Below, one piece after another: positions 23,150 to 47,033 of a stretch of DNA of 47,033 nt (the stretch's first letter is position 1; each line of letters starts with the position of its first letter). The notes under the pieces were generated by a model that had not been told where the DNA came from, did not search any database, and was given only the letters and a program-made list of their open reading frames with translations. A program made the translations under genes and the position numbers. Location: positions 1-47,033 of the IMG/VR virus record IMGVR_UViG_3300009117_000043. One strand, given 5' to 3'. Source of the stretch: a virus (lineage: Duplodnaviria > Caudoviricetes).

Positions 23150-23169
23150 TAGATTACACTCCTTTTTGT

Positions 23170-23368: not shown

Positions 23369-23379
23369 TTTTTTTAGAC

Positions 23380-23457: not shown

Positions 23458-23488
23458 TACGCTCCCTCCAATCCAATTATTCAAGAAT

Positions 23489-23517: not shown

Positions 23518-23557
23518 GTTTCCATAATTGTTCAAAAAAGTATACAGATAACGAATA

Positions 23558-25118
23558 TCCTATTCTCCTTTTATTCTTACTTCACTTTTCTCACGCCGTT
23601 TTCATCGACCTCATAGCCGTCAATTTTAGTGCTTTTAGCAAGAGATCCGTCGGCATTGAAGTAGTACCGTTTACCTTCGATCTCCAGCCATTTTCCTGCA
23701 ACCATGCTGCCGTCAACGGTGAAATAATAGTGATACTTGCCGCTTTCGGTGGTGAGCCAGCCGATGGCAGGCTTGCCGTTTTCGCCAATATACTGCCACT
23801 GACCGGCATCATTCTGTACCCAGCCACGTGCTGTGCCTTCGTCAATGACCAACTCCACAAAGCGGCGCAGGATGGTGGATGCTTCCGCACGAGTAGCATT
23901 GCCCTGCGGGTCAAAGAGATTATTGCCCTTACCGCCCACCACTCCGGTCTGCTGGATTGCCTTTACCGCAGCTTTTGCGTAAGCGGAGATTTTTGCATCA
24001 TCGGCAAAGGTGATGCTCTGCCGTGATACAGGCAGCTTGTAGCCGGTAGCCGTTGCATAGTTTTGCATCATTACCGCCATCTGCTCACGAGTGATGGAGT
24101 CGTTTGGCCTGAATTTTCCACTGCCGATGCCCTGCACGATTTTGTTTTTAACCGCCCATTCGATATAAGGCATGGCGGTATCAGTATTCTTCACATCGGT
24201 GAAGCTGCTGGTTTTGTAACTACTCCCATCCGCACCGGAAAGCCTACCCAGTGCCATCAGGAAGTCAGCACGGGTGATGGCTGTATTCGGAGTAAATGTG
24301 CTCTCGCTGCTTCCGGTAATCAAACCACGGCTGACCACAAAATCAATATGGTCCTTTGCCCAATGCTTTGCCGTATCGGTGAAGGTCGGGGCGGGAGCCT
24401 TGTAGCCCACGCCGTAGGTGGACAGGCTGTTTCTGCTGAAAATCAGTCTGCCGGTGTTGTCGTAGCTGGAGTTATTTAAAAGCTGTGGTTTGCCGTTCTT
24501 ATCAACGTACACACCGAACAGATGGCCTTTGTTCTCTCCTCCTGTTGCTTCGTAGGATATCCCCAGCGTTACGATACCCTTACCGAATTTGCTGACATAT
24601 TCGGCTTTTCCATTCTTCTGATAGCTTACGGTAATGTCAAACACAGGACGATTGCCGATGAGCTTCTTTGCCGCATCAGACAGCTTCGTCAGCTTCCTGG
24701 CAGAAACCGTAACCGTGCCGGTGGACTGATTGTCAACCTCGGCAATCGCACCAGTATCAAAGGTTACATCCAATACAGACGAGCCGATTTTAATGAACTT
24801 CACACCCGATTCTTTTAGACGGTCGATTGCACCAGCTTCAATCATTGCATTCAGGTTAGTATAGCTGCCACTGCCTATGACATTGAAATCTACAGCAATT
24901 CCATCAAGCGTCTTGCCGGATTTTTCCGCCGCATCCTGTGCCGCCTTGATGGCGTCCTTCACCATCTGTTCGGTGATGGTTGCAGAGAGAATGCCGTCCT
25001 TCACTGTGCCTGAAACGCTCATGTTTGCCACGGTTGGCATATCGGGCTGTTTATCGGTGGTGATATTGGTTTTCGGTACAGTCATTCCGCCTCCTGAACC
25101 GCCGCCACCGCCGCCTGA
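23558..25118 (-). repeat. Copy 2 of the ~1.55-kb direct repeat
   Basis: Near-identical to 16603-18160. Confidence 0.9.
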
Positions 25119-30584: not shown

Positions 30585-32408
30585 TTACGTTTTGAGTACA
30601 GTGCGTCGGCGCATGGTGTTTTCAGCGGATTCTGCTACAGGGGTATGAAGCGTGCCGGTTCCGGCTGATGCCTCAATAACCTCCCCAGTTTCTTCATCAG
30701 CCATAAGACAGGTCATATGCCTTCGGACAATATTTTCTTCCAGCATATTTTTGTCGGCATACGTTACCTTCCGATGTGCCTTTTCCTCTACGGCATAAGG
30801 CTTTCCGAAACGGATACCCCAATCAAGAAACAAGCGCAACCGTGTTTTCATGGGATGAGTGCCGGTTTTCATGACAACAAAGTTTCCCTTGGGGATGGAT
30901 TTCAGTTCATCCGATGTCATGAGAGGTCGTTCCATCATCTGTAGCGATTGGCTGGGATCATTCTTTCCACGGTTCACGCTGCCGCTCATGACAGTTCTGG
31001 AACCCAGCGCCTTGCTTAGCACCTCGGCAGTCTGGCTATTGGGAGCGAAACCGCCGAAAATGGTATCTTGGCAGTTGTCTACGATGATTTCTGAACCCTC
31101 CTTGCCATAATTCTTTTCAAGCTGACCGAATGACTGTATGATGGGCACCATGGAAAGACGGCGGGAGCGTGAAGCAGTGAAAATTAATTCGAGCGATTCA
31201 ATGGTCGGAAGCGTTCCCAGCTCATCGCAATAAAACATCACACGGTTTTTCAGCTTACCGCCATTTTCATCGGCAACCGCAAGAATCTCCCGATAGAGCT
31301 GCTGGATCATAAGAGAGACCATAAAATACTTAGTCAAATCTTCTTCGGGAAGCACAATAAACAACGCGGACTTTTCCTTACAGAATTTCTCCGCATCAAT
31401 GGCCGTTTCAAAACAGAGAACCTGCTCCATCTCACTGTCTAAAAAGGAGTTGAGCCGAGAGAGCACGGTGGAGAGCACCGATGCCATAGCTTGCTCTGCA
31501 GAGTTAAGTGCGGCACCTGCAAACCAGCGGGCCTTGTGGTCTGAGGGGAGCTTATCCATAAGGAGCTGGAACTGACTCTTGCCCTTTACCTTGCTTGGAG
31601 CAAGCAAGTCCTGCACCAGCTTAAATACGCTGATGATATGACGGCAATCCTTTTTCCGGTCATCCACCTCAGAGGGCGGCAGATATTCGGCAATCAGCAA
31701 AATGACAGAGGTTAAAAGACCTTCGGCGGCATCATAGAAAAACTGATTTTGACCGTAATTTTCGCCGCTGGAATTGATGATGGTTTTGGAGATGATCTTA
31801 GCGTATTTCTCTGCCTTTGCCTTTGCCACAAGGTTATTTTCATCAGCAATGTATTGATCCATATAGGTGTTGACCAGGTGGAGCATATTGTTGCCATCCG
31901 AGCGTGTGGGGTTTCTGAGGTCGATGACTGCCACATGGTAGCCATAGTAGTCTTGTGCAATGGTACCGTAATTGCGGTAGAGGTCACCCTTGGTATCGGT
32001 GGTCAGAAAGCTCATGCCAGAGGCACAGGCATATTCCAAATTGGGGTACAGGAAAAATGCCGTCTTGCCAACACCGGATGCACCAATCATCAGACAATGA
32101 ACATCATCAGTATCCACCAGCGCTGTCACCTTGTTCTTTGCTCCTTTGCTTCCAAGGATGATGCCCTGCTCATCTGTGGCAGGCAGACACTGCCCCTGCC
32201 TCCACAGCTCCGGCTCAAATGGAATATGCTTGTAGATTCTTTTGATTTCCTGCTTGGTTGCAAAGCGTGCCGTACCATGCTGGCCGTCACCTACAGTGCG
32301 GGATTTGATTCCGTTTAAGGTATAGTAATGCGCTAAAAGAGAAAGACCGCCAATGACGAGAAACATCACGGCGCCTGCGGCAATGAGAGCGAGTACAGGT
32401 TCTTGCAT
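30585..32408 (-). CDS. virD4: VirD4-like type IV coupling protein
   Basis: N-terminal TM, GQHGTARFA, Walker A GASGVGKT, TDTKGD, CDELG and IQSFGQL..YG. Confidence 0.92.
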   Translation of the reverse strand: MQEPVLALIAAGAVMFLVIGGLSLLAHYYTLNGIKSRTVGDGQHGTARFATKQEIKRIYKHIPFEPELWRQGQCLPATDEQGIILGSKGAKNKVTALVDTDDVHCLMIGASGVGKTAFFLYPNLEYACASGMSFLTTDTKGDLYRNYGTIAQDYYGYHVAVIDLRNPTRSDGNNMLHLVNTYMDQYIADENNLVAKAKAEKYAKIISKTIINSSGENYGQNQFFYDAAEGLLTSVILLIAEYLPPSEVDDRKKDCRHIISVFKLVQDLLAPSKVKGKSQFQLLMDKLPSDHKARWFAGAALNSAEQAMASVLSTVLSRLNSFLDSEMEQVLCFETAIDAEKFCKEKSALFIVLPEEDLTKYFMVSLMIQQLYREILAVADENGGKLKNRVMFYCDELGTLPTIESLELIFTASRSRRLSMVPIIQSFGQLEKNYGKEGSEIIVDNCQDTIFGGFAPNSQTAEVLSKALGSRTVMSGSVNRGKNDPSQSLQMMERPLMTSDELKSIPKGNFVVMKTGTHPMKTRLRLFLDWGIRFGKPYAVEEKAHRKVTYADKNMLEENIVRRHMTCLMADEETGEVIEASAGTGTLHTPVAESAENTMRRRTVLKT

Positions 32409-32585
32409 GAAGATGCTCCTTTCCAATTTCTATATTGTGCGGTATAATAAATAAACCGCCTGCAGATGTAGACGGTTATGTAGAAAATCTTGCTTATTCC
32501 GAAGATAGGTGATTCGGAATAAGGTAAATGAAGTTTATATACCAGACAGTTCAACAATCTGGAAGTTGTGGAGGGAAAAAAATCA

Positions 32586-33374
32586 ATGCTTGATAGAAGC
32601 ACGTTGCTGCAGGATTTGAAAGAGACTAATAAAATTGGAGAGTTATTTCAGTTTTTCACATCAAAAAAAGAAGATGTGGAATATGGAGAACAAGCGAAGC
32701 GGAAATATCAGCAACTTGGGTGGAGTAACAATAAACATTTTGATATAATTAACTCGTTTTGGATAACCTTCTCATTATTAATGCATTTTTACTTTCCTCA
32801 GGATTATCCCATAGCTGAGGCAGGAAATGTGAAGATATACAAGTACCACAGCAAACATTTCTACTCATTCCCTGAAAAATACTTTCTAGAAAACTCAGAA
32901 GAAAGAAAAAAAGTAGAAGATTTATACGCAAAAAATCCAGACATTAGTAAGCTGGCGGAGCTTTGCCATAGTGTTGCAAATTTTATGCCTTGTCCTAAAA
33001 ATTTCAACTCGTGTAAAGGCTTGCTGAATGATGTAAAAGACTATCTTCCTTTGATGGTTGACAAGATACAGGCTTGCGTTGATAACGATACTGACTTGAA
33101 ATATTACAATAAAGATAATGAAGTTGTTATCGATAAGAATACAATTAATAAATGGCACAGTTTCCTTGCTGATAACCAAAAAAAATATTGCTTGGATATG
33201 TACTATACAGTTGACGGTTTGATAATTAAAGGCATTCCTTTTTTCACTGGGCAAACATTACTTAATGCATGTCCCAAGAATGCTGAGGAAGTAGAAGAAT
33301 GCTTGTGGAAAATGACAAAAGGTATAGAACGAAGAGCGGAACAACTGGGCAACACAATTGATTCGCTTGCTTAA
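32586..33374 (+). CDS. AT-rich hypothetical protein inserted in the opposite orientation, possibly with a His-Me/HNH-like motif
   Basis: Only long plus-strand gene in the ICE; ggaggg RBS; HSVANFMPCP..FNSCKG motif. Confidence 0.7.
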   Translation: MLDRSTLLQDLKETNKIGELFQFFTSKKEDVEYGEQAKRKYQQLGWSNNKHFDIINSFWITFSLLMHFYFPQDYPIAEAGNVKIYKYHSKHFYSFPEKYFLENSEERKKVEDLYAKNPDISKLAELCHSVANFMPCPKNFNSCKGLLNDVKDYLPLMVDKIQACVDNDTDLKYYNKDNEVVIDKNTINKWHSFLADNQKKYCLDMYYTVDGLIIKGIPFFTGQTLLNACPKNAEEVEECLWKMTKGIERRAEQLGNTIDSLA

Positions 33375-33473
33375 ATGCGCAACTCCCGATTTGTCGGGGA
33401 GATTATGAGCACACCCTTTGCTGATACACACCAACTCACCCCCAAAGAAAATCTCCCTAATTATAAAGATTGG

Positions 33474-33509
33474 GCAGAGCGGTCAGCGATATGACCGCTC
33501 TGCTTTTTT
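33474..33509. terminator. Intrinsic terminator between convergent genes
   Basis: gcagagcggtca/tgaccgctctgc followed by tttttt on the plus strand. Confidence 0.75.
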
Positions 33510-34453
33510 CATGCCATCCTCATTTCAAATCCACGCTGCCTTTGCTGTGCCATCGTTACTAAATCGTCATTCCAATCCTTGCCCTGAGAAATAATCCGCT
33601 GCGAGAAATATCCTTTTTCTGAAAGCTGATTTTTCAATCGCTCACTTGCTTTGTGACCGGCTGCATCGTTGTCCAAGCACAAAGACACCTTTTGAAGTTC
33701 CGGATATTGTTCCAGCATCCACATCATCGCCTGTCCACCGACACCGCAGAGAGCCACATAGCTATGCTGCTGCCAATCCTCCGGGTGCAGAGTAATAAAG
33801 GACAGCATATCAACCGGAGCTTCAAAAACGTACAAGGTATCACTTTCCCCGATCCAGTGAAAGCTGTACCGGGGATCACAGGCATCCACATTTCCTTTGA
33901 AGCCAATACCCTCGGTATAAAGTCCTCGCTTGTGGGCATGTCTGGCAGTACCTGTTTCATCTATGCCCACAAATACAGCATTGTGGTATTCTTTAGTGCC
34001 GTCCTTGGATTTCTCACAGCTCTCATACAGGAGCTTTGCTTTGGCAAAAAAACTGACCACCTCCCGATCAATGAGCCGGGTTTTAACCAGATAAGCATAG
34101 GCACGGCGCATATCGCTGTGAGGCTTCGGAAGTGCAAAGGGCTTTTTCACTTCCAGTTTCCTTTTCTCTGCGGGACGGTAGGCTTCGCCCTGTTCACCGC
34201 CCAGCAGCATGGTTACGGCCTCGGGAAAGGAAAGATCATAAAACTGCTTTACAAAATCAATCGCATACCCACCGCTCTCTGCGGAGTGATCGTACCATTC
34301 GTTTCCTCGGACGGTAATGCTGTGATCCGATGCAAGACGTTTTTCTCTGCCTGACTTGATTAGCTTTTCACCCCTCATTTCCAAAAAATTCACAAGGTCA
34401 ACGCTATTGGCACACTGTTTCTGCTCATCCGTAAAATGTACATATGCCCCCAT
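33509..34453 (-). CDS. DUF3991/toprim primase-like protein
   Basis: VFEAPVDMLS and LCLDNDAAG..KDWNDDL toprim motifs; ggagg RBS. Confidence 0.85.
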   Translation of the reverse strand: MGAYVHFTDEQKQCANSVDLVNFLEMRGEKLIKSGREKRLASDHSITVRGNEWYDHSAESGGYAIDFVKQFYDLSFPEAVTMLLGGEQGEAYRPAEKRKLEVKKPFALPKPHSDMRRAYAYLVKTRLIDREVVSFFAKAKLLYESCEKSKDGTKEYHNAVFVGIDETGTARHAHKRGLYTEGIGFKGNVDACDPRYSFHWIGESDTLYVFEAPVDMLSFITLHPEDWQQHSYVALCGVGGQAMMWMLEQYPELQKVSLCLDNDAAGHKASERLKNQLSEKGYFSQRIISQGKDWNDDLVTMAQQRQRGFEMRMA

Positions 34454-34464
34454 GGATACACCTC

Positions 34465-34587
34465 CTATCTGTGGCGGCAACCGATTCGATGAAAAAGCAT
34501 CGGACGTTTTACTGCCCGATGCTGATTCTGATTTATTATTATCTTTTTGGTTGACTGCTGGTTACATTTCCTTTTTTGTTTGTTCAT
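34465..34587 (-). CDS. Possible 40-aa basic peptide
   Basis: ggagg RBS; MNKQKRKCNQQ...HRIGCRHR*; the stop overlaps the RBS of the toprim gene. Confidence 0.4.
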   Translation of the reverse strand: MNKQKRKCNQQSTKKIIINQNQHRAVKRPMLFHRIGCRHR

Positions 34588-34670
34588 CGGATTCCTCCAA
34601 TCGTTATAACGAAGTTACAAGGTTCTGGGGTACCCGCTCAAAATCTTTGATTTACCAGCGGGTCAGGTTC

Positions 34671-37553
34671 TTATAAAGACATGGTTTGCTCCTGATCATC
34701 CCTTGCGTGACCCTGTGCCTGCTTCTTCTCTCGAAGCTTACGCAAGAGTTTCCGGTCTGTCCGCTGACCAAGCGGTTTCAGCGGCGGTGCATTATCTGAA
34801 AAAATACGGCTCATATGATGCAGGAGTCGTGTTCCCGCAAGCAAAGCAGAAGGGTCTTTGAAACTGTCCATATGGTCGAGGAAAAATTGGGCATAAATAT
34901 TGCCCTGTGCTGCCGAGAGGGTAAACCATCGAACAGCAGCAGCCTTGTCCTTTGAGACTTCTTTTCCCATCAGATACAGCTTGCCGAGGGTGTACTGCGC
35001 ATATTGATTCCCCTGTTCAGCAGAAGCCGTCAGAAATTGCAGGGCAGCCTGTATATCCTTGGGCGCATCCTCGCCCATGAGATAAATCTTACCCAGCCGG
35101 TACTGTGCAAACTGGTTTCCCTGCTCGGCAGACCCTTTCAGGTATTCCAGAGCTTTCGGGATATCTCTCGGAACATCTTCCCCTTTGAGGTAAAGGGTGC
35201 CGAGGGCATATTCGGCAAACTGATTTTTTCTGTCTGCGGCAAATTTCAGCCAATAGATGGCGGACTCTACATCCTTCAGCACACCATCACCGCCAAGATA
35301 CAGCTTTCCGAGCCGGTATGCAGCAAAGTCATTTTCCTGTTTTGCCGACATTGTGTAGAGTCGTACTGCCTCGGAAACATTATGCGGAACGTGCTGTCCC
35401 TTTTCATAGAGCTTGCCGAGAAAATATGAGGCATAGGGATTTTCAGCTTCCACCGCTTTGCAGAGGTAACCGAGGGCTTTCGTTGCCTCCTGCGGATATG
35501 CCTTTTCATCAGAGAGGATGAGCTTGGCAAGCTGGTAGCAGGCAAAGGGATTTCCCACGGATGCCGCCTTTTCAAAGTATTCCTTTGCCCTGGCTTCATC
35601 CTTGTCTGTACCTACGCCGTTCAGAAGCATCCAGCCCAACCGGTATTGGAGTTTATCGTCATGGCTCTGTTCCTCCATGGACATAAAACCGAGAAAGGCT
35701 TCCTTGAAGCGGCGGTCAGCATCCTGCTGATTTTTCACACAGCCGATTCCGTCCCGCAGCATTTTTCCAAGCTCAAAACTGGCATAGGGAAAGCTCTGAT
35801 CCGCCGAGCGGGTGTAGAGGGCAAATGCGGTTTCGTGATCCTGATCCACGCCTTTGCCATGGTAATACAGACCGCCAAGGGAATACTGTGCGTACTTGTA
35901 GTTCTCATCCGCAGACAGGGTGAGCCAGTCTGCCGCCTGCAGATAGTCCTGCTCTGTGCCAAGTCCTGCGGCATACATTTTGCCGATACGATACTCGGTG
36001 TATTTCCAAGGCTGTTCTTCTTCGGCAGCATAGAAAACGGCAAGAGCCTTTTCGTACCAGCGGCATGCTTCATCAGCGTACGCTTCGCAGCCAAGACCAT
36101 CCGCAGCCATTCTTCCGAGATCATACATGGCGAGAGGATTATCTGTCTTCGCTTCCGCAAGGAAGAGTTCACGGGCCTTTTCAAAGTCCTGCAAAATCCC
36201 GGCATTCTCATCACCATATAAATATTGCTTTGCCAGTTTGTACTCGTCTGTCCACCAAGATCCTGATGATTCCTTATCATCTGAGGCTTCATTTCGTTCT
36301 TCAACAGTCGGTTCTCTGAAATGATCATCAGTTTCCTGATTTTCGTCCTCTGTCCTTTCATCGGAAGGTATCTTCCGCTCATCCTCTGGCTCCGGGAGCG
36401 CTATATCCAAGGATGCCGGTTCCTCAAAGGTCATGGAGCCAATCAGCAGTGCTTCCTGAATAACCATGTTCCGTATGGCTTTGAAATCATCACAGCGTGA
36501 AAGAGACGGCGGGTCTGACGGAGTTTCGGTGTATATGGATTCAATCCTCCCCCTCACCTCCCACCACAGGCGGTAGGCTTTTGCAATACGGTTGTCCCTC
36601 CCGAGCTCATCTACGATTTCGTCCACCACATTTTTAAGGTCTGCCTTGAGGTACCCATATTGCTTTTTTCCGGAGGTATTCTGTAAGCGTTCTGCAAGAT
36701 GCGTGATGAGCTGCTCCATACGGCTGCTTTGCAAAATACCGTTTTTCATCTGCCGGATGCATTCATGCATTGCTCCGGCAGCTTCTTCCTTCAAGGCATC
36801 CCGCCGCTGGGTCTTTTCTCCGTAAAGGGGAATGAGCTCTTGACGGAAGATTTCATTTGCAAGAGAAGATTTTAATTTTTTAATACCCTGTCTGGTGAGG
36901 TAGCCCTCCCTCGGTTCGGTGCTGTAGCAGATCATGTGGACATGGGGATGATGGGATTCATTGTGAAAGGCTGCATACCACTTCAGATGGTCCGGATGAA
37001 TTTTTAAGCTCTCGGCAAGCTCCATGACTTTGGAGGAAAGCAGAGCTTTCCAAGCAGCAGCATTGTCATAGCCGATTCTGGATGCTTCCTCGCGGCGCAG
37101 AGAAATAATCGGTGTCCATACATTTCCTGTGTGTTCTGATACTTCTTCAGCAACCTGTGACAGGATGAGTGGTTCATCCCCTGCAGTGAACAGGCCGTGG
37201 CTGTCAATCTTTTCAACACGGGGACGGTTTGCAATGTAATCCAGATATTTTTCCCGGCCGCTGATTTTATCAAGGTTCTGTTCCAGTGCAATGGTGATAA
37301 ATTCAGAAGCATTTTTTCGGTTTGGGTTTTCGCAGTAGTCCTCATATTCAAACAAATCCCTGGTATCGGGAAACTCCCGGAGGATCTGCACAATCAAATC
37401 CTTCTGCTTTTTTGTGGCATGCCAAAGCTCTCGACCATTTTCCATCTTTTCCACGCCGTCGCGGGTGGCAATATATTTGACGAGGTTGTTCAGATGGGCA
37501 GCAGTCTTTTCTCCACCTTTGAGGTAGGGACACTTTAAAATGATGCGGGCCAT
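34671..37553 (-). CDS. MobP3-type relaxase with a C-terminal SEL1/TPR repeat array
   Basis: VKYIATRDGV Tyr, WYAAFHNESHHPHVHM HUH motif, and about 12 A.Y.LG..Y..G.GV repeats. Confidence 0.9.
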   Translation of the reverse strand: MARIILKCPYLKGGEKTAAHLNNLVKYIATRDGVEKMENGRELWHATKKQKDLIVQILREFPDTRDLFEYEDYCENPNRKNASEFITIALEQNLDKISGREKYLDYIANRPRVEKIDSHGLFTAGDEPLILSQVAEEVSEHTGNVWTPIISLRREEASRIGYDNAAAWKALLSSKVMELAESLKIHPDHLKWYAAFHNESHHPHVHMICYSTEPREGYLTRQGIKKLKSSLANEIFRQELIPLYGEKTQRRDALKEEAAGAMHECIRQMKNGILQSSRMEQLITHLAERLQNTSGKKQYGYLKADLKNVVDEIVDELGRDNRIAKAYRLWWEVRGRIESIYTETPSDPPSLSRCDDFKAIRNMVIQEALLIGSMTFEEPASLDIALPEPEDERKIPSDERTEDENQETDDHFREPTVEERNEASDDKESSGSWWTDEYKLAKQYLYGDENAGILQDFEKARELFLAEAKTDNPLAMYDLGRMAADGLGCEAYADEACRWYEKALAVFYAAEEEQPWKYTEYRIGKMYAAGLGTEQDYLQAADWLTLSADENYKYAQYSLGGLYYHGKGVDQDHETAFALYTRSADQSFPYASFELGKMLRDGIGCVKNQQDADRRFKEAFLGFMSMEEQSHDDKLQYRLGWMLLNGVGTDKDEARAKEYFEKAASVGNPFACYQLAKLILSDEKAYPQEATKALGYLCKAVEAENPYASYFLGKLYEKGQHVPHNVSEAVRLYTMSAKQENDFAAYRLGKLYLGGDGVLKDVESAIYWLKFAADRKNQFAEYALGTLYLKGEDVPRDIPKALEYLKGSAEQGNQFAQYRLGKIYLMGEDAPKDIQAALQFLTASAEQGNQYAQYTLGKLYLMGKEVSKDKAAAVRWFTLSAAQGNIYAQFFLDHMDSFKDPSALLAGTRLLHHMSRIFSDNAPPLKPLGQRTDRKLLRKLREKKQAQGHARDDQEQTMSL

Positions 37554-37981
37554 TATTCTTCCGTCTCAGAGCTGTTTTGGAAATCCACCGCATCGTCCAG
37601 CCGAATTTTACCTCTGGTTTTTTTGACCTCGGCAACACATCTGCCACGGAGCCGATACAGTTCCTCATCGGTAATCTCCAGCGTGGTTGCCAAAAGATGC
37701 ATCATCATACTGATTTCCACTGAAAGCCTGAATAAATTATTTGCCACCCGGTTTTCGGTGTTCTGCAGCGTGCCTTGTATAGATCCAAGCAGGGTTTGGG
37801 AGAGGAAGGTTGTACTGCTTTTGCTGCCCAGATAACCGATGTAGAAATCCACTGCCTTTGATATAAATTCAGTATGGTTTTTCATGTCATTTGCCGCCAT
37901 GAGTGATTCCATGTTGGCAATCATTTCGGGATAGAGCCATGCGGTGACTCTTTGCTTCAAGTCATTATTTATCTTTTTCAT
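37553..37981 (-). CDS. Ribbon-helix-helix-like relaxosome accessory protein (putative)
   Basis: RVTAWL beta strand then two helices (NHTEFISKAVDFY); lies between oriT and the relaxase, to which it is coupled. Confidence 0.65.
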   Translation of the reverse strand: MKKINNDLKQRVTAWLYPEMIANMESLMAANDMKNHTEFISKAVDFYIGYLGSKSSTTFLSQTLLGSIQGTLQNTENRVANNLFRLSVEISMMMHLLATTLEITDEELYRLRGRCVAEVKKTRGKIRLDDAVDFQNSSETEE

Positions 37982-38163
37982 TGCTTCACCTCTCCTGTTT
38001 TTTGATGCATCACCAATAACAGCACCTTGCAAAGCCCTCCAATGCCGGGACTTTTGGAGGATTACAGCACCCTCCAGAGCCAAAAGCCCCATTTACAGCA
38101 CCTTTTTTAGGTTGGGGAAATATCACTCACCGTATCTGAAAATCCTTGATTTCTCTGTAAAAT

Positions 38164-38230
38164 GCGGGCGGCACTGCCGTCCGCTGTGACCGCAAGGGGC
38201 AGTTTACAGCCCCTTGCTTTATCCTGCTCT
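38164..38230 (+). other. oriT: oriT with MOBP-type nic motif
   Basis: Hairpins at 38164-38184 and gcaaggggc/gccccttgc (38192-38217) are followed by TATCCTG|C (38220-38227), in the non-coding gap upstream of the RHH and relaxase genes. Confidence 0.75.
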
Positions 38231-38409
38231 TTTTTCGACCTCAGAGAGTACATTGGATTTCTGCATATTTGGCTGAGTTGCGGCTTTCCGACAGCTTCGC
38301 ACAAAGCCCTTTTATTTGGTACTGTGGGTAAACCTGCCACCCTGCCTGTCAGAACGGCACACAGGGGCGAACAGCGGGGCAACGGCGGCAATACATCTGC
38401 TGTGGCATA

Positions 38410-38694
38410 TCAAATCTCAGATGCTTCCTTCCACTGGATGGGCACTGCCGTCTTACTATTTTCCTTCTGCTTTTTCGCCTGAGGTGCAGGCGCGTCATCC
38501 ATGGTTTCATCAATGTACTCACGCACCGGGGCGGGCACATATTTTTCATAGAGCTTTTGCAGGGCATCTGCAAGCTCCTGTTCGATGGACGCATCCTTTT
38601 TGGCCATATACCGCTTGGTTGCCCCAAGCTTTTGGGCTTCCATACTGAGCGTAATATTTTCCTTTTTCACTTTATACATCCTCCTGTTAATCAA
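38410..38694 (-). CDS. Small ICE protein (DUF6103-like)
   Basis: LQKLYEKYVPAPVREYI motif; likely start about 38679. Confidence 0.65.
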   Translation of the reverse strand: MINRRMYKVKKENITLSMEAQKLGATKRYMAKKDASIEQELADALQKLYEKYVPAPVREYIDETMDDAPAPQAKKQKENSKTAVPIQWKEASEI

Positions 38695-39059
38695 AATCCG
38701 ATAAATCTCATTCGAGGTTCAAGCTCTGGTTCCTGTCCGCTAAAGACAGGGATCTCAGAAAAAAGCTGACTGTATTCTGCAATTTTACTTTTGCTGAGAG
38801 AGGAAAAATCCCCTTCAGGGGTGGTGTCACAAACGAAAAACGGACCGCAGATGATGTCTGCGCCAAGTCGTCTGTTCGGCTGCATACCGTTTATTTTACC
38901 TTCCTCATTGCAAACAACAACGCAGCCGTTTGGGAAGCTGATGCATTCAATCAGCCCTCCCACCTCTGCCTGTAAACCAGAAAGGTCATTACAAATTTCC
39001 TTTACAGCAGGCGGCTGCCCTGGTTCAATTTTCAATACTTTAATCATATTTGCTTTCAT
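38691..39059 (-). CDS. DUF3846-like protein
   Basis: LQAEVGGLIE..CNEEGK..PNR..DIICGPFFV. Confidence 0.75.
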   Translation of the reverse strand: MKANMIKVLKIEPGQPPAVKEICNDLSGLQAEVGGLIECISFPNGCVVVCNEEGKINGMQPNRRLGADIICGPFFVCDTTPEGDFSSLSKSKIAEYSQLFSEIPVFSGQEPELEPRMRFIGF

Positions 39060-39073
39060 AAGCGCATCCTTTC

Positions 39074-40162
39074 TTATGGTAAATAGCTTCTTGGATTTTT
39101 CTTTTCTCCGTTTATCCGAACCTCAAAATGCAGATGATTTCCTGTACTTCTTCCGGTCGAACCCACCTCAGCTATAACAGTACCGGTATCCACGGTTTGC
39201 CCTTCGCTGACAAGGATCTTGGAGCAATGGGCATACAATGTAACGAACCCGCCGCCGTGATCAACCATCACATGATAGCCGTACCCACTTTTAGAATAGC
39301 GAACTACATAAACTGTTCCAGGCAAAGCTGCCCGAATTGCAGTCCCCTTTGGGGCGCCAAGGTCAATCCCGCTGTGCCCTGCTGTTTTGCCTGTAAACGG
39401 GTCTTTGCGGTAGCCAAACTCCGAGGTGACTATGCTGCGCCAATTCTCACCGAGCGGTGAGCAGAAACCATCTGCCCCGATGAATGGTGCAGACGAAAGG
39501 GGCAAGCCATCCGACCACTGGTCAAATTCATTACCATAGGTTGGCGCAGGTCTGCCATACAGCACACGATAATAAATTTCCGTGGCGTTGATTTGGTTTT
39601 CATTTGTGACTGCTATTTCCATGGCAGAGGAAACATTTGCATAGACCACGGACAGTTCCCTAATGGGAACCGCCACGATATAGGTTTCTTCATCGGTTGT
39701 TCCATCTTCATTTGTGACAGTGCGTGTGCGCTGCTCATAGGTGACAAAGCAATCCACAAATTTCCTGTGCCCAAGCCTTGAGGGACTATCTGCGCCGAAG
39801 AACAGAGAATAAAAAATAGCCTTAACCCTTACCGAGTCGAGGCTATCTCCAGCTTCCACTTCAGCATTCACTGCGGCAATAGTGCCGTCCAAAAGAGTGA
39901 AGCTTCCACGCATATCTTCAATATATCCACGATAATCCTCTGGAACATTTCCAGAAATCACACCGCCGTTAAAGCACAAGCCCACTGCAGTATTATTGTG
40001 GTCTGCTGTGCTTGCAAGCAAAGAACAGACAATAACTATCGCTAAAATAAGGGGCGACAGCACTGCAGCGATGATCCAGAGGGCCGTTTTGCGAAAGCGC
40101 TCATCCGAAAGTGCGGCAGCTGCGGCCTTGACTGCGACTGTAATCGTTGCGGGATCAGCCAT
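39074..40162 (-). CDS. Membrane-anchored M23 peptidase (conjugation cell-wall hydrolase)
   Basis: HSGID, LYAHCS and STGNHLHFE; N-terminal TM. Confidence 0.9.
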   Translation of the reverse strand: MADPATITVAVKAAAAALSDERFRKTALWIIAAVLSPLILAIVIVCSLLASTADHNNTAVGLCFNGGVISGNVPEDYRGYIEDMRGSFTLLDGTIAAVNAEVEAGDSLDSVRVKAIFYSLFFGADSPSRLGHRKFVDCFVTYEQRTRTVTNEDGTTDEETYIVAVPIRELSVVYANVSSAMEIAVTNENQINATEIYYRVLYGRPAPTYGNEFDQWSDGLPLSSAPFIGADGFCSPLGENWRSIVTSEFGYRKDPFTGKTAGHSGIDLGAPKGTAIRAALPGTVYVVRYSKSGYGYHVMVDHGGGFVTLYAHCSKILVSEGQTVDTGTVIAEVGSTGRSTGNHLHFEVRINGEKKNPRSYLP

Positions 40163-40166
40163 ATCT

Positions 40167-40670
40167 TCACCACCATTTCAATCCGTTAAAACCAAACAGG
40201 TTCTGCTGCTCGGGCTCAGGCTCTCTTTCCATAAGCTGTTCAGTGTACTCAACTGCCTGCTCTAAAACGGCGGTATCAAAGCCTGATGTTTTGTAGCCCT
40301 CACGAATAGTATTGTAGTAAAAATCGGAAGGATAGCCCAGCCGATGCCCCGGTGTCATCACATAGACCATAGCCGAAACAGTCTTGCCGTCCAGGGTCAG
40401 CTCCATGGTCTCTTTATCATAAAGGCTCGGATAGCCTTCATAAATATCCAGAGCCGCCTCATCCTTCGGTGTAATCTTCCACAATAAAACCGGAACAGAT
40501 GCACCCTCACAAGGCTCAACGGTAGCCACAGCACCATTTTTTCCACCACGAAACAGCAGGGCGTAATCCTTTATTTCGGAGGCTCCCACTACCTTGGCGG
40601 TGGGACATCTTTTCGTCATCTGCGGTAGATTGAGGTTGCTGCCGTAGGCAATATACAGTTTATCTTTCAT
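40167..40670 (-). CDS. Gamma-glutamylcyclotransferase (AIG2-like)
   Basis: YIAYGSNL..QM..RCP and LDIYEGYP..Y. Confidence 0.88.
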   Translation of the reverse strand: MKDKLYIAYGSNLNLPQMTKRCPTAKVVGASEIKDYALLFRGGKNGAVATVEPCEGASVPVLLWKITPKDEAALDIYEGYPSLYDKETMELTLDGKTVSAMVYVMTPGHRLGYPSDFYYNTIREGYKTSGFDTAVLEQAVEYTEQLMEREPEPEQQNLFGFNGLKWW

Positions 40671-40680
40671 ATGGACTCCT

Positions 40681-41718
40681 TTACATTGACATAGTTAAAG
40701 CGGGGGACTGATCATCCTCCGCTTCCATAATAATTTCTGCTATAGCTTCTTCTGGCGGTGCCTGCACCTGTTCCCGCTCCGCTTCACGCTTCTGCCGCAG
40801 CCGTTCTTTCTGTCTTTGGGCCTGTGCAGGGTCTTTCCATGCAATACAGCCCTCCAGATGATCCAGCAGATGCTTGCGTGCTGTTTTGAATTCATCCCCA
40901 ATCATACCGAGGCGCAAAAGCCATACACGGAAGGTATATTTTTCATTGCTGGACTGGGTTTTTGCAGGGCTTGCTGACCGTTGGTTGAGCGCCTGTGCGG
41001 TGATGGCAAGGCAGAACTGAACATATGCCTTAATCTTTCCGGCATGCAGATCACCATTAAAAGCACGGAATTCCACCGTGCCTTTTTGGAACACGCTGTG
41101 CAGATTGAGACAGTGGTAACGGCTGGAATGATAGTGCTCCCGGCTTCCGTCACTGCCGTTGTACCAGATACGCTTTAGTTGTTCACGGGTTGCAGGCTTC
41201 TGCCGGTTAAGACGCTCTAAAAAGCTCGGGTCGATTTTCTGGCAGTAGCTGGTCTCCCTTCCTCGAGAAACCTTCAATGCCTTGTAGATCATGTCCTCCT
41301 TGGCTGCCATGATGTTAACTAGGTTTCTGAGCTTCGGAGCTTCAAAGGGTGCGGCATTGATGTGGATATGGATACCGCAGGAGGAATTCACAAAGGCTCC
41401 GGCTTCCCTAAGCTTTCGTACCAGCTCCTGCACCGTTTCAATATCTCTGTACTGACAGATAGGACTGACCAGCTCCACACTGTAGCTTCGGTCGGCACTG
41501 ATTTTTCTGCGCCCCTCTTTTCTCTGACAGTCAATGCTGCCGTCGCTCATGACCTTCCATTTTCGGTCAGCCGTATCCTTTGCAAAATAGGCATCGTAAA
41601 AGCTGCCCTCATATTCCTTGGTTGTACCGAAATATTCGGCAATCACATCGGCGGCTCGGCTTCTTGTAATCCCGGTCATTTCAATTTCTATTCCGAAATC
41701 CTGCCCCTGTATCTCCAT
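40681..41718 (-). CDS. Putative amidoligase (COOH-NH2 ligase, Amidoligase_2-like)
   Basis: FGIEIE, SDGSI, ELVSP, SCGIHIH, RYHCLN and TVEFR. Confidence 0.88.
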   Translation of the reverse strand: MEIQGQDFGIEIEMTGITRSRAADVIAEYFGTTKEYEGSFYDAYFAKDTADRKWKVMSDGSIDCQRKEGRRKISADRSYSVELVSPICQYRDIETVQELVRKLREAGAFVNSSCGIHIHINAAPFEAPKLRNLVNIMAAKEDMIYKALKVSRGRETSYCQKIDPSFLERLNRQKPATREQLKRIWYNGSDGSREHYHSSRYHCLNLHSVFQKGTVEFRAFNGDLHAGKIKAYVQFCLAITAQALNQRSASPAKTQSSNEKYTFRVWLLRLGMIGDEFKTARKHLLDHLEGCIAWKDPAQAQRQKERLRQKREAEREQVQAPPEEAIAEIIMEAEDDQSPALTMSM

Positions 41719-41731
41719 TTAACCACCGCCT

Positions 41732-42232
41732 TTACCACATCCTGTGCTGTAGGGTAAGGTCTTCTTTCTGCATGAGTCCTGCTGTTTCCGCAGCGGAGTT
41801 GATAAAGCTGCAAAGCCTTTCCCTTCGCCAGGTATCAATCAGGTGCCGGCCGCATTCCTCATTAAGCGCATTGATTTTCAGGACAGTATCCCGCACACAT
41901 TCTGAAATGGCGACAGGATCACCTTCTGCGGATACAAGATCATCAATGTACTCATCCAGAATATTTCCCATCAAGGACACATCCTCCGGGGTATAATGAT
42001 AGCTTCCGGCATAGGGGTTGGGGTATTCCTTGTCGTCCATGCAGTAACGCAGATGCTCTAAAATAGAAGGGCGTTCCTCATGCTCTGCCTTCTGGTACTT
42101 CTCCATAAAGGCTAAAATATCCGCTTCCCTGTTTGGGGTGTAGCGGATAAAGGACAGCATATCTTCGAGGATGCCCACTTTGTTTCCTTTCTGACTTTGA
42201 AGCTTATCCATGGTTTTTTCTCCCTTCTTCAT
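41732..42232 (-). CDS. Hypothetical protein
   Basis: Clean ORF coupled to virB4; alternative start at about 42211. Confidence 0.7.
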   Translation of the reverse strand: MKKGEKTMDKLQSQKGNKVGILEDMLSFIRYTPNREADILAFMEKYQKAEHEERPSILEHLRYCMDDKEYPNPYAGSYHYTPEDVSLMGNILDEYIDDLVSAEGDPVAISECVRDTVLKINALNEECGRHLIDTWRRERLCSFINSAAETAGLMQKEDLTLQHRMW

Positions 42233-44061
42233 TATCTGCCACCCGCCTTTCCGAAGAGCTTCTCCTTGTAGGTCGGAGCATGAACCGCAAGGTTATACCG
42301 CTCGATGCCGCATTTATACAGACAGACTCCCCGCTGGGGAAAGCGAATGAGATTGTATTCGCTTTCTTCAAGCTGGAGGGAGTCGATATAAAACTGCTTG
42401 TCGATGTTACCCGCATTGAACAAAAAGGCATGGGTCGGAATGGAAAACAGCGGCTTGGTCAGCTCCCGAATTCCATCAATGTTGAAATCCTCCAGATTCT
42501 GCGATGCCAGAATGACCGCCGAATCCTTCTTTCTCACACGCTTCATAAAGTTGCGGATATACTCTATGGCGGTCAGATTGGTCAGGAACAGGTACAACTC
42601 ATCAATGCTGGCAACGGTGCTGCCCTCAGTCAGCAGCTTGTCGCTCATAAAGGACAGCACATTGAACAGTAATGCGTTTTTCACGTTTCGGCTGGCCTGT
42701 AGGAGTCCTTTTACTCCGAACACAATAAAGCGTTCGGAGCTCACGTTGGTGTGACCGTTAAAAAATTTACTCTCCGCACCCATACACATGGAGTGGAGCC
42801 CCAACAGAATTTCCTGCAGAAGCTCTGCGGTGTAGAGCTGATACTTGGTCTTGTCGTATCCTTTATACTCATCCTCAATCAGTTCATACAGGTCAGACAG
42901 AATGGGATAGTCAGTGGCTGACAAGCTTCTGAAATCAGTGCTGTCACTGATTCCGAACATTCCGTACAGCTTACTTAGCATGATTTCAATCGCATCAATA
43001 TGGCGGTCGGAAAAATCCTTATAGCAGCGGAAGAAATCCTTAAGGAAGCTGATGTGCTGACTGAGCTTAGTGGACTGGCGGAATGCCAAGGGTGCATCTG
43101 TATCCTCCGGGCTACCGCCCTCATCCCATGTTTTCGGTTCAAGAGGGTTTATCCGATACTGACCGCTCATCAGGTCGATAAAGCACCCGCCGAGGTTTTC
43201 GGCAAGGTCAACATACTCATGTTCCGGATCCAGGCAGACGCACGTCTTGCCGGATTCCAGAATATTGCACAGGATCAGCTTTAAGAGATAGCTCTTGCCC
43301 TGACCGGAGTTTCCGAGGATGAGGATATTGGCATTGGTCTTATCTTCGTCGCGCTTGTCAAAATCCACGATGATGTTGCTGCCGAATTTGTCACGTCCAA
43401 GACAGAATCCCTTAGCGTCTGTTTTGCCGCTGTAGTTAAAGGGATAAAGATTTGCTGCTGAGCTTGCCGGAAGCACCCGTTCAAACTGGCTGCCAAACAC
43501 ATTTCTTCCTGCAGGGCCGACAGATAAAAATCCCTCCTGCTGACGCAGAATGAGACGATCCACGTTGAGCTTTGAGCGAACCAGCTCGGTCAGCACATCC
43601 GTCTGGAGGAGCTTCAGCGCATCCAAATCGTTCGCTGTCAACTCCATAAACACAGCGCAGTGCAACAGCGGCTCCCGGTTCCTGTGCATGGAGGATACCA
43701 AGGACACAACGTCCTGCAGGTTACTCTCAGCAGTGACAGTCTGCTGCAGATTATTGGTATTGCTCTTGTCCATGCGATTTTTATTGGCAGCATTGTGAAT
43801 GATTTTTCGTTCCTCGGCTGCGGTTACCTGTCTGGTATAGATACGCAGAGTCACGCCGTCTTTCTCCCCAAGGTGGCGCAGGATGGCCTGCTCAGAAGTG
43901 CTGGTAGGGTATTCTCTGAGTGCCCATACGCAGCGGTAGGTGTTTCCGCAGATAAAATGATCTGTATTGAATTTGATAATGCCCGGGGCGATCATATCAA
44001 GGAAATCCTTGATTCTTGCACCCTCGGCTTCCGGCATTTCTTTTTTTCTGATTTTACTCAC
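42232..44061 (-). CDS. virB4: VirB4-like conjugative ATPase
   Basis: GNSGQGKS, LDPEHEY, INPL, IDELY and KRVRK..ASQN. Confidence 0.92.
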   Translation of the reverse strand: MSKIRKKEMPEAEGARIKDFLDMIAPGIIKFNTDHFICGNTYRCVWALREYPTSTSEQAILRHLGEKDGVTLRIYTRQVTAAEERKIIHNAANKNRMDKSNTNNLQQTVTAESNLQDVVSLVSSMHRNREPLLHCAVFMELTANDLDALKLLQTDVLTELVRSKLNVDRLILRQQEGFLSVGPAGRNVFGSQFERVLPASSAANLYPFNYSGKTDAKGFCLGRDKFGSNIIVDFDKRDEDKTNANILILGNSGQGKSYLLKLILCNILESGKTCVCLDPEHEYVDLAENLGGCFIDLMSGQYRINPLEPKTWDEGGSPEDTDAPLAFRQSTKLSQHISFLKDFFRCYKDFSDRHIDAIEIMLSKLYGMFGISDSTDFRSLSATDYPILSDLYELIEDEYKGYDKTKYQLYTAELLQEILLGLHSMCMGAESKFFNGHTNVSSERFIVFGVKGLLQASRNVKNALLFNVLSFMSDKLLTEGSTVASIDELYLFLTNLTAIEYIRNFMKRVRKKDSAVILASQNLEDFNIDGIRELTKPLFSIPTHAFLFNAGNIDKQFYIDSLQLEESEYNLIRFPQRGVCLYKCGIERYNLAVHAPTYKEKLFGKAGGR

Positions 44062-44638
44062 CGAAAATCACCCACCTTTCTCCGTCATAGTCCTCATATT
44101 TTTCTGTGGTCACGTTCTGCTCATAATAGACTCCAAGCAGACGCTTGATATCCACATCTGCCGCCTTGCGCGCTGTAAAGCCCTGATCCTTGAGGCTCTT
44201 TTCAATGCGAGAGAGGTAAGGCTGTACATCTGCTTCCTTTTCGCCACGCAGACGGATGATGATTAAAAATTCCCTTGCGGTCGCCATCTGCACCTGCATA
44301 CGGTCAAGACCTGTCATGTCCTGTGTCAGCAGCTTTCGGATGGCTGGATTTTGTTCGGCGTCCATGCGACTTCTAAGATGTGTCTTTACATCCTCAAAAT
44401 TCTCCCTTGAATTCAGGCAGAGCATCTCAATTTCTGCGATGCCCTTTAAGACATTCATCAGTGCGTAGATTCTCGCACCGATGCTGATGTCGGACAGCAC
44501 ACTGATATTGGTAGGCTTAATCATAAAAAATACCAGCTCACCATATCCGGTCACCAGGCTGTGCGAGGTGATTTCCGCGATGCCCATGAGCTGGCGGGTA
44601 GAGGCTTTCTGCCTGTCCTGTTTCTTTTTTCTGTTCAT
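44054..44638 (-). CDS. Conjugation protein upstream of VirB4 (hypothetical)
   Basis: Overlaps both neighbours; IKPTNISVLS motif. Confidence 0.65.
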   Translation of the reverse strand: MNRKKKQDRQKASTRQLMGIAEITSHSLVTGYGELVFFMIKPTNISVLSDISIGARIYALMNVLKGIAEIEMLCLNSRENFEDVKTHLRSRMDAEQNPAIRKLLTQDMTGLDRMQVQMATAREFLIIIRLRGEKEADVQPYLSRIEKSLKDQGFTARKAADVDIKRLLGVYYEQNVTTEKYEDYDGERWVIFGE

Positions 44639-44898
44639 AATCCTATCCCCCATTCATAGCTCTGCTGCTTCCCAATGAAGAAGCGGACAGCGTTTATAAT
44701 AAAATTTAGGATGCTGGTATCCTCGAAGCGTATGGTCAAAAATGCGTAGAGGGCTGTGATGACAATGGGCGGCAGAAAATGAAGCTGCGCCAGTGCAAAC
44801 ACAGAGAGTAAAAGCCCCACTCCGATGATGCCGATGTCACGCAGCTCCCAAAGCCACAAGGTAGCCTTTGCAGTCAGGTTGTCGGGGTAGATGTACAT
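44635..44898 (-). CDS. Small two-TM PrgI/VirB3-like protein
   Basis: YIYPDNL followed by two hydrophobic segments; ggagg RBS; position upstream of virB4. Confidence 0.65.
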   Translation of the reverse strand: MYIYPDNLTAKATLWLWELRDIGIIGVGLLLSVFALAQLHFLPPIVITALYAFLTIRFEDTSILNFIINAVRFFIGKQQSYEWGIGL

Positions 44899-47033
44899 GA
44901 TGTTGATTCCTCCTGTTCTTTATTGATTTTTCGCAAAAAATAAGCGATGCCACGGAGGATAAAATCCACACATGGTATCGCAACGCTGTTGCCCAGCGCC
45001 TTGTACCGGGCAGAGTCCGATGCGCCCGGAATCAGAGTCCAGCCATCGGGGAATCCTTGGAGCCGTTCGCACTCCAAAGGAGTAAGCCTGCGGATGAGGT
45101 TTCGTCTCTCCACGATGCATTTATCCTGGCTGACATACTGATTACCGACACCCTTTTCATCCCCCCGGCAAAGGGAACCTACCACATCCTGATATGGTTC
45201 GCATACCGCATGGCGGTCGCTGGTAGTTATGGTATAGCTGATATCTGGCTGACAGCCTAAACCGTTGCCTCCATTTTCCGGCTCCCGGTCAATGATATTT
45301 CCCGCGATGCAAATGGTTTTCTGCAAAACGGGGTTTCCTACAAGCGGAACATTATTGCCACCTGTACCCATCCGGGCGGCGAGGGTTGGGGCTACGCCAA
45401 GCGGACCGTTGTATCTGCCATCCTTGGGATGGTTTTCAAATAACACCGGCTGGTTGTTGCCAGAGGTTCCGGCGGCAGATGTGATGGTTGGGCAAATCCC
45501 TGCTCCAATTTCTGCACCACCCTGCTGAGTCGCCATAACCAATGGCTGATGCCCATGCTCCTGGGCGCGTAGAGTTCCTGTAATGTCGTCGGTGCAGTGC
45601 ATTTGGCTGCCGCCCTGATCATTTAAGCAGAGGACGGTTGGTGCAGTGCCTGTTTTCAGCGTAGGGGAACATTCCTCCTGAAAGCCAATTCCCCCGGCAT
45701 CCCCGCTTGCACTGCCGCAGAATCCTGCAGCAAACAGCAGACCGCCCGGATTTCTGCCTCCACCGCCGTCTGCCCCTGCAAGCGTAGGCGCAGCTCCACC
45801 TGCTGTGAACACTCTGCTTTGCTGGGTATCCCAGCTATTCAGGCAGTTGGGCTGTGCAACAAGGGGAGGATAACCGCCCATGCCCGCACGGAGTGTAGGT
45901 GTGACTTCCTCAGTGATGTCCATCCGCTCCCCACCCTGGTCATTTAAGCAGATCAGCGGTTCCGTAACGAAGGTCATCTGCATATTTCGGGTCGCAAGCA
46001 GTGCACCGGATATGCCATGAAGGTCGATTACCTCATCTCTTTGGTTCACATGAAATGTATTGACTTCTTTGGTTTCCGCAACAAAGGTCTGCTGTTTTAT
46101 ACCCGGCTGAGCCTGTATTGCCCCAGCGATATCATGCAGGTCACGAACCTCATCACGCTGATTGGCTGCAAAAGCCACTACTGTTTTTTCTTGTGTCTGG
46201 ATATATCCATGGCCGCCGCCCTCTCCGCTATAGAGAGCCGGCCATGTCCCTGTTTCCTCAAAAATGCGGCGGCTCTGCACATCCCATGGGGTCAGGCAAG
46301 CCCCGCCTGTATCATCAGTGCTTCCCTCAGCTGAGGCGGAAGCTCCTTGCCTCTCGCCTCGGCTCTCCGCAATATTCCCAAACAGGCTGTCTTGCTTAAA
46401 TAATATTTCGGGTGCGGTGAGTCCTCCAAAATCTGCGACAAGGAAGATACGACGGCGACGCTGGGCGACTCCCCAGAATTGAGCGTCCAAGACACGCCAA
46501 GCAAGGCTGAATTCACCTCCCAGAAAGACAGCCCCAGCAGATTCCCAGCGCCCGTACTCAGGTCGAGGCACATCACAGGAACTGTCCTTGATGCGGACGA
46601 TCTCCTCAATGACCGCCCGGAAGTCCTCGCCCTCTGCGGAGCTGAAGGCTCCGGGGACATTTTCCCAAACGAGGTATCGAGGTCGAACAAGGTAATTTGG
46701 TATGCTTCGCTGCTCATCGGCTTTTCTCATCTCCTTCGTGATTCGTGTCTGCTCCATAAATAAGCCGGAGCGTTCCCCTGCAAGTCCTGCACGCTGACCC
46801 GCAACCGATAAATCCTGACAGGGTGAGCCGCCGCAGATAACATCCACAGGTGGAAGAACCGCTCCATCCAGCTTTGTAATATCCCCGACATGGAGCATTT
46901 CGGGGAATCGAATTTTCGTCACTTCAATGGGGAAGGCTTCGATTTCGCTTGCCCACAAAGGCGTAATACCATTTCGGACAGCGGCAAGTGGAAAGCCTCC
47001 GATTCCATCAAAGAGGCTCCCCATTGTCATCAT
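44874..47033 (-). CDS. C5 DNA cytosine methyltransferase with an expanded variable region
   Basis: SLFDGIGG (I), GGSPCQ (IV), WENVPG (VI), QRRRRIF (VIII), RRLTPLECERLQGFP and GNSV. The start lies at the window edge. Confidence 0.93.
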   Translation of the reverse strand: MMTMGSLFDGIGGFPLAAVRNGITPLWASEIEAFPIEVTKIRFPEMLHVGDITKLDGAVLPPVDVICGGSPCQDLSVAGQRAGLAGERSGLFMEQTRITKEMRKADEQRSIPNYLVRPRYLVWENVPGAFSSAEGEDFRAVIEEIVRIKDSSCDVPRPEYGRWESAGAVFLGGEFSLAWRVLDAQFWGVAQRRRRIFLVADFGGLTAPEILFKQDSLFGNIAESRGERQGASASAEGSTDDTGGACLTPWDVQSRRIFEETGTWPALYSGEGGGHGYIQTQEKTVVAFAANQRDEVRDLHDIAGAIQAQPGIKQQTFVAETKEVNTFHVNQRDEVIDLHGISGALLATRNMQMTFVTEPLICLNDQGGERMDITEEVTPTLRAGMGGYPPLVAQPNCLNSWDTQQSRVFTAGGAAPTLAGADGGGGRNPGGLLFAAGFCGSASGDAGGIGFQEECSPTLKTGTAPTVLCLNDQGGSQMHCTDDITGTLRAQEHGHQPLVMATQQGGAEIGAGICPTITSAAGTSGNNQPVLFENHPKDGRYNGPLGVAPTLAARMGTGGNNVPLVGNPVLQKTICIAGNIIDREPENGGNGLGCQPDISYTITTSDRHAVCEPYQDVVGSLCRGDEKGVGNQYVSQDKCIVERRNLIRRLTPLECERLQGFPDGWTLIPGASDSARYKALGNSVAIPCVDFILRGIAYFLRKINKEQEESTSCTSTPTT
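46292..46717 (-). CDS. Nested alternative-frame ORF, putative second (beta-like) methyltransferase subunit
   Basis: Same strand, different frame; has a protein-like C-terminus SLSQILE..PKYYLSKTACLGILRRAEARGKELP..L. Confidence 0.6.
   Translation of the reverse strand: MSSEAYQITLFDLDTSFGKMSPEPSAPQRARTSGRSLRRSSASRTVPVMCLDLSTGAGNLLGLSFWEVNSALLGVSWTLNSGESPSVAVVSSLSQILEDSPHPKYYLSKTACLGILRRAEARGKELPPQLREALMIQAGLA

Follow-up and report, generated by a model that had tools for sequence, protein, structure and literature searches.

The beta chain of the E. coli methyltransferase M.EcoHK31I is encoded within the alpha gene and bears motif IX. Silent removal of the beta start codons abolished methylation, beta supplied in trans restored it, and truncation of beta through residues 65-70 cut activity (PMC2836561, available text). 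M.AquI also consists of two polypeptides, one with motifs I-VIII together with some of the variable region and the other with the rest of that region and motifs IX-X (PMC3404938, accessible portion). In the GenBank record of Streptococcus pneumoniae phage MM1 (AJ302074), a 141-aa ORF (ORF14) is annotated inside a methylase gene (ORF13), and the text of PMC8637289, as far as available, mentions merely putative MM1 methyltransferases.

Here we analysed a 47,033-nucleotide stretch of DNA (the window) covering the IMG/VR virus record IMGVR_UViG_3300009117_000043. One part of it is open in two frames, and we consider it likely that these encode two chains that together form one orphan C5 methyltransferase of a conjugative element.

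Genomic context and gene organization

The window carries, at one end, a gene for a C5 methyltransferase chain (alpha) and, out of frame within it, a second ORF (beta). The features referred to below are listed with window coordinates.

44874..47033, minus strand: alpha, a 719-aa C5 cytosine methyltransferase chain (PF00145, E 4e-44; TIGR00675) in the order motifs I-VIII, repeat array, motifs IX-X
46818..46823, minus strand: Pro-Cys of alpha motif IV with the catalytic cysteine, outside the overlap
46731..46736, minus strand: AAGGAG, Shine-Dalgarno-like in sequence, made by the K-E codons of alpha
46292..46717, minus strand (that of alpha): beta, a 141-codon ORF nested over alpha codons 106-247 in the +1 frame
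46656..46664, minus strand: alpha motif VI (ENV; E124-N-V), within the overlap
46422..46463, minus strand: alpha motif VIII and its tail (QRRRRIFLVADFGG), the same bases encoding VVSSLSQILE of beta
46313..46441, minus strand: beta core LSQILE..PKYYLS..ACLGILRRA..GKELP..L..AL, predicted to be helical
45114..46301, minus strand: repeat array of alpha, some 10-11 units, each about 35 aa long and with a P/G-T/A-L/I core, defined by pattern
44943..45095, minus strand: alpha motifs IX-X, residues 647-697, aligned to M.HhaI 271-319
30585..44898, minus strand: conjugation module downstream of alpha, with a TraL/PrgI-like small gene, a VirB4-like ATPase, an M23 peptidase, a MobL relaxase and a VirD4-like coupling protein

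The start codon of alpha lies at the contig end, at the same position as the start in five close relatives, and the C5 cytosine DNA methyltransferase motifs I, IV (PC), VI (ENV), VIII (QxRxR), IX and X are all intact. We take the repeat units to be target-recognition-domain-like (TRD-like) by resemblance. They were defined by pattern only, and self-BLAST of the array detected no internal repeats. As look-alikes by pattern, the units may represent several independent one-specificity TRDs of the multispecific phage type.

The original prediction placed a same-strand 141-codon ORF inside the methyltransferase gene, spanning motifs VI-VIII and ending where the array starts. We found it there in the +1 frame, with its stop at alpha codon 247 and the first repeat unit beginning near codon 245. 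The accompanying claim, that the C-terminus of beta lies over a low-complexity linker of alpha, holds for the ACLGILRRAEARGKELP helix only. SLSQILE sits on motif VIII, where VVSSLSQILE of beta and RRIFLVADFGG (the motif VIII tail) of alpha are written in the same bases, and PKYYLS sits on the conserved PEILF of alpha. The spacing from AAGGAG to the beta ATG is 13 nt here, which is long, and about 7 nt where relatives start two codons earlier. A Shine-Dalgarno-like word precedes the first beta ATG in 69 of 81 sequences (raw count; best 80 of 561 GTDB loci plus the window).

Beta matched no Pfam or NCBIfam family and had a weak PHROGs match to phrog_16143, “DNA methyltransferase” (E 0.04). Sequence-profile searches of the PDB with beta gave no matches in one case and matches at E 0.29 or worse in another; a DNMT1 match among the latter lay elsewhere in the chain and was taken as chance. 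In the ESM Atlas, beta fell in unnamed hypothetical clusters alone, with a low recognition score (1757). One sequencing run contained more than half of the words, and two recorded as RNA contained at most 7%; RNA cannot separate the two frames.

Serine recombinases also occur downstream of alpha and, together with the VirB4-like, MobL and VirD4-like proteins there, they place alpha in a conjugative element. Of the 80 related loci (best 80 of 561), 45 have a VirB4-like neighbour, as do 43 of the 55 that exceed 10 kb. The genes upstream of alpha in one relative (L002) are TrbL_5 and DUF7768. No cognate endonuclease was found among the window proteins scanned; the upstream side of alpha lies beyond the contig.

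Several other genes of the window deserve mention. The conjugation operon includes an Amidoligase_2 and gamma-glutamyl cyclotransferase pair (40167-41718, minus strand), and a 215-codon out-of-frame ORF (35735-36382, minus strand) lies on the same strand within the 960-aa MobL/Sel1 gene. Two large surface-protein-like ORFs of 2175 and 1506 aa occupy 16622-28097 (minus strand), the former with choline/glucan-binding-type repeats at its end. The macrolide efflux gene mef(A) (4955-6172, minus strand), which scored 886 bits against an NCBIfam cut-off of 675, lies among small cargo genes at the contig's far end.

Selection on the nested reading frame

The main set of 81 sequences comprised the window and 80 GTDB loci, the best of 561 retrieved with alpha residues 1-240. 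The scored stretch was alpha 107-215, trimmed in a few shorter alphas at alpha's own stop; two loci (L029 and L038) are broken or cut near its end. In all 81 sequences the +1 frame is free of stops over this stretch. The two controls, codons 3-100 read in the +1 frame and the overlap read in the +2 frame, are each stop-free in 0 of the same 81.

Synonymous recoding keeps the +1 frame of the window gene open in 1.5% of trials. This figure carries modest weight, which instead comes from the relatives. For the 81 sequences, recoding leaves the +1 frame over 107-215 open in 14% of trials per sequence (mean), and opportunities for a synonymous stop were used in 0 of 1030 cases in the overlap versus 337 of 1465 in the control. 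To lessen the effect of kinship we also counted per alignment column: where a synonymous stop is allowed, one is seen in 0 of 19 columns of the overlap versus 21 of 22 of the control. Third positions of four-fold codons show a fixation of 0.79-0.82 in the overlap versus 0.48. The median identity of control third positions is 0.42, and the sequence set is therefore well diverged. Over alpha 206-224, beta is more conserved than alpha (0.85 versus 0.67).

A second set of 80 viral loci was found with residues 2-106 only, and so was chosen outside the overlap. Scoring was possible for 64 of them, with the +1 frame open in 63, the +2 frame in 1 and the control stretch in 0; the 16 unscored loci include 14 with the beta core motif and 2 that are cut short. 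A separate 80 viral loci were picked via beta (frame open in 52 of 53 scored), and we left these out of the evidence because they were chosen on beta. The avoidance of stop codons expected of homologues under the original prediction is seen in both sets, and its claim of dual-coding DNA agrees with a frame that is kept open and conserved in relatives. We conclude that the nested beta ORF is real and under selection.

Layouts and distribution of the gene pair

In 33 of the 81 sequences (best 80 of 561 plus the window), the repeats and motifs IX-X are in the alpha frame, as in the window (layout A). In another 35 they are in the beta frame and alpha ends at 210-270 residues (layout B), the two genes overlapping out of frame by about 115-160 codons. 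The other 13 are truncated or broken and fall outside both layouts; two of the layout calls were checked with Pfam. At E 1e-5 or better, 40 of the 81 beta-frame proteins match the window's repeat array. Motif X contributes to the cofactor site (PMC5944983, available text), and the beta frame of layout B must be translated, because it alone carries motifs IX-X there.

On a quick tree of the catalytic part of alpha, the layout label changes 7 times, and at least 3 of these changes are forced by well-supported branches. The tree has 68 rows, the 13 truncated or broken sequences being left out; 31 of its 61 inner branches are open, and the direction of the changes is unreadable. Recombination could mimic such switches. 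Common to all layouts is the beta core over motif VIII.

A profile search with beta gave 4,426 clusters at 50% identity (E up to 0.001), and tblastn with beta gave 533 plasmid and 163 phage records (E up to 10). We opened six distant records (an E. coli plasmid, Streptococcus, Mycobacterium and Vibrio phages, Deinococcus and Corynebacterium), and frame and register were the same in 6 of 6.

Some relatives have unusual arrangements. Methanobacterium virus Drs3 (L175, 681-1814) has a nested beta in an archaeal virus gene annotated as hypothetical. Circularly permuted relatives with C-terminal motifs I-II keep the nested beta (L088, L089, L098, L099, L107, L124, L127, L129, L144, L147 and L148, and the protein P0243); the available part of PMC5944983 indicates that this permutation seemingly does not occur naturally. 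Mycobacterium phage Lucky2013 (L083, 2589-3789) encodes an alpha that reaches motif VIII, a nested beta and a third ORF with motifs IX-X, and gene pairs resembling these occur in other mycobacteriophages. In five viral loci (L202, L208, L214, L221 and L240), alpha shifts frame between motifs IV and VIII, and the beta core is still +1 relative to motif VIII. A run of G in the overlap just after motif VIII has 7 bases in the intact L228, L231 and L233 and 8 bases in L236, L237 and L244, where alpha stops past motif VIII and beta is without the YYLS helix. This G7/G8 run is a candidate phase-variable on/off switch.

Probable correspondence of the beta core to a segment of one-chain enzymes

The last 41 residues of MM1 beta have matches in 293 phage records. 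We fetched 10 of the weaker ones. Six, including one from an archaeal virus, are nested and read in +1. The remaining four, M.H2I included, lie in frame, 25-60 codons past motif VIII, and the +1 frame is closed. We then searched 172 other loci with a profile of these four one-chain segments. At 5 bits or more, it was found in the +1 frame in 121, in the alpha frame in 1 and in the +2 frame in 0. The window beta scores 7.6 bits; the HK31I-type, P1-like, Vibrio, Mycobacterium and Corynebacterium betas score below 5 bits. The distribution is complementary, in that alphas with a nested ORF are without the segment. In a comparison of the beta profile with full M.H2I, the probability was 66%. The beta core thus appears to match the in-frame segment located past motif VIII in one-chain C5 methyltransferases, by a test that is partly circular because the four segments were found through MM1 beta.

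AF2 models were made for two natural long-beta proteins of relatives (pTM 0.42 and 0.30), with most alignment rows common to both, and their confidence lies mainly in the core helices and motif IX. Compared with 48,161 solved chains, the top 5 and the top 8 rows were C5 methyltransferases. The model core and motif IX superposed on EhMeth from 189 with Z 5.2 and rmsd 3.7 over 75 residues; a second superposition at EhMeth 189 gave Z 3.8 and rmsd 4.5 over 73 residues (model 91-167), and that on M.HhaI from 187 gave Z 3.5 and rmsd 4.1 over 70 residues. These matches are consistent with the correspondence and not probative, since the Z scores are in the noise range of the tool and the models have rows in common. 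Foldseek searches with a long-beta model returned nothing at E 0.001, only alignments of 32-49 columns. We found no account in the literature of the breadth of this family, its frame switching or the homology of the segment, in a search that covered older and subscription work thinly.

A proposed two-chain methyltransferase and alternative explanations

Alpha has motifs I-X and is without the L-x-D/Q-I-L-E...K-Y-Y-L-S segment; beta carries this segment, written over motif VIII. Because motif VIII and LSQILE are on the same bases, no single chain can hold both, and no ribosomal frameshift can produce one that does. From the sequence, we infer that the window gene most likely encodes an obligate two-subunit enzyme. 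Beta would initiate at its own ATG behind the K-E-M-R codons of alpha. Alpha would supply the motifs for catalysis and the cofactor, plus in this gene the repeats, and beta the segment that opens the variable region. Beta may dock on alpha so that its core packs onto motif IX at the base of the DNA-recognition domain, the place that the in-frame segment would take in a one-chain enzyme. If the chains associate anyway, the downstream blocks would be free to sit in either frame, and single linker indels could move the repeats and motifs IX-X between alpha and beta. As is generally known of orphan methyltransferases, such an enzyme could shield the element from restriction when it is transferred, perhaps at several sites.

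The origin of the arrangement is a matter for speculation. The post-VIII segment may have been brought over the end of motif VIII by a deletion that changed the frame, and then rescued by a start codon lying upstream within alpha. For the family as a whole (the 4,426 clusters, mostly unannotated) we lean towards three propositions taken jointly: its members would be obligate two-frame methyltransferases; they would have arisen when the post-VIII segment was displaced into the +1 frame atop motif VIII, locking the overlap and freeing the repeats and motifs IX-X; and M.EcoHK31I, MM1 and the P1-like Dmt would be layouts of one family, in which the common job of beta is the segment and not motif IX.

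The likeliest alternative, though in our view an improbable one, is that beta is made but accessory, serving activity, specificity, stability or the organisation of the array, and that alpha works alone. Alpha does hold all ten motifs, and the N-terminal 90 residues of beta, which include the conserved words LDL..G.GNLLG..WE, are unmatched in one-chain enzymes. However, alpha is without the in-frame segment in 171 of 172 loci. The core is also present where the variable region is short (HK31I-type, P1-like Dmt and Deinococcus), so beta is not tied to the repeat array, and the earlier suggestion that beta scaffolds the TRDs has become less likely. In addition, M.EcoHK31I requires beta and its LSQVLE matters, although that beta also bears motif IX (PMC2836561, available text).

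Far less probable is a programmed +1 frameshift region that gives one chain. A shift shortly past motif VIII would, in layout B, join alpha to the repeats and motifs IX-X; some database proteins fuse the start of alpha to the beta frame, and one phage clade shows a varying G7/G8 run within the overlap. Nevertheless, besides the placement of LSQILE and motif VIII on the same bases, a shifted chain in the window layout would end at the beta stop and lose motifs IX-X. The +1 frame stays open and conserved over some 85 codons upstream of motif VIII and has an ATG in that part, and the chimeric database proteins that we inspected are without motif VIII. The longest homopolymer past the core is at most 7 in 71 of 71 scored sequences, and M.EcoHK31I depends on the start codons of beta (PMC2836561, as available).

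Finally, that the +1 frame is an untranslated by-product of the amino-acid and codon constraints of alpha is hardly credible: the 14% of recoding trials that stay open, the lack of a Pfam or NCBIfam family and the low Atlas score would fit it, but synonymous stops are absent from the overlap (0 of 1030 versus 337 of 1465), its four-fold third positions are more fixed, beta out-conserves alpha at 206-224 and layout B needs the frame.

The preferred interpretation, two chains from one overlapped stretch, has practical consequences. Bacteria rarely have long same-strand overlaps in which selection acts on both frames, and the overlap here spans a catalytic motif. Annotation usually gives one of the two ORFs, so recoded cloning of “the gene” would mislead, as would taking layout B for a broken pseudogene. 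Should the core prove to be the post-motif-VIII segment, the published description of HK31I beta, which has it carrying motif IX, would be incomplete, a natural and testable path would lead from a one-chain enzyme to overlapping genes, and ready-made split methyltransferases would be at hand.

Comparison with known systems

M.H2I of Bacillus phage H2, which we take to be multispecific, is a single chain. In its record (M72412), the L-x-E-I-L-E...K-Y-Y-L-S segment lies in frame, 60 codons past motif VIII, and the +1 frame is closed by stops. This differs from the window gene, where the segment is in the nested frame.

In a Dam-family/Dmt gene of P1-like E. coli plasmids, the C5 half contains a nested beta of 164 aa, unannotated and in the same register. 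The plasmid gene differs from the window gene in being fused to an adenine methyltransferase and in its short variable region. Its assignment as Dmt and as P1-related is presumptive and follows annotations.

The division of motifs in M.AquI, as given in the accessible portion of PMC3404938, is that of the layout B relatives and not that of the window. A split of this type was found in 35 of the 81 sequences (best 80 of 561 plus the window), the window not among them.

For M.EcoHK31I (E. coli, YGGCCR), a primer given in the available text of PMC2836561 matched 81 of 5,426 E. coli genomes. We compared one of these genes (L167), which also fits the terminal primers of that text and was treated as HK31I-type. 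It has a 309-aa alpha, a 176-aa nested ORF and an adjoining NotI-family endonuclease. Homology to the EcoHK31I beta chain, proposed in the original prediction, is supported by an hhalign match between the window beta and the HK31I-type beta (97.5%, E 7e-12; 32% identity over 104 columns) in the same frame and register. In both genes beta is nested +1 over motifs VI-VIII and has LSQ(V/I)LE in the same register; residues 65-70 of the HK31I-type beta are this LSQVLE, on motif VIII as in the window. The two differ in that the 176-aa HK31I-type beta carries motif IX, which its alpha is without, whereas in the window alpha residues 647-697 carry motifs IX-X, as had been anticipated. Consistently, PF00145 matches the HK31I-type beta and not the window beta. 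The HK31I-type gene also has a NotI-family endonuclease as its neighbour, and its variable region is short; the window gene has about 10 repeat units and is in a conjugation operon. The principle of a nested beta is known from M.EcoHK31I, and by its motif IX placement the window gene is a variant of it and not a member of that type.

The closest counterpart in layout is the ORF13/ORF14 pair of phage MM1. The window gene shares its short +1 ORF (ORF14 in MM1), LS(D/Q)ILE over motif VIII (LSDILE in MM1) and motifs IX-X in the long chain. The MM1 pair differs in being annotated only as a putative methyltransferase, in its shorter core without the long C-terminal helix, and in belonging to a phage, whereas the window gene belongs to a conjugative element. 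The layout of the window gene is thus already on record through the GenBank annotation of MM1.
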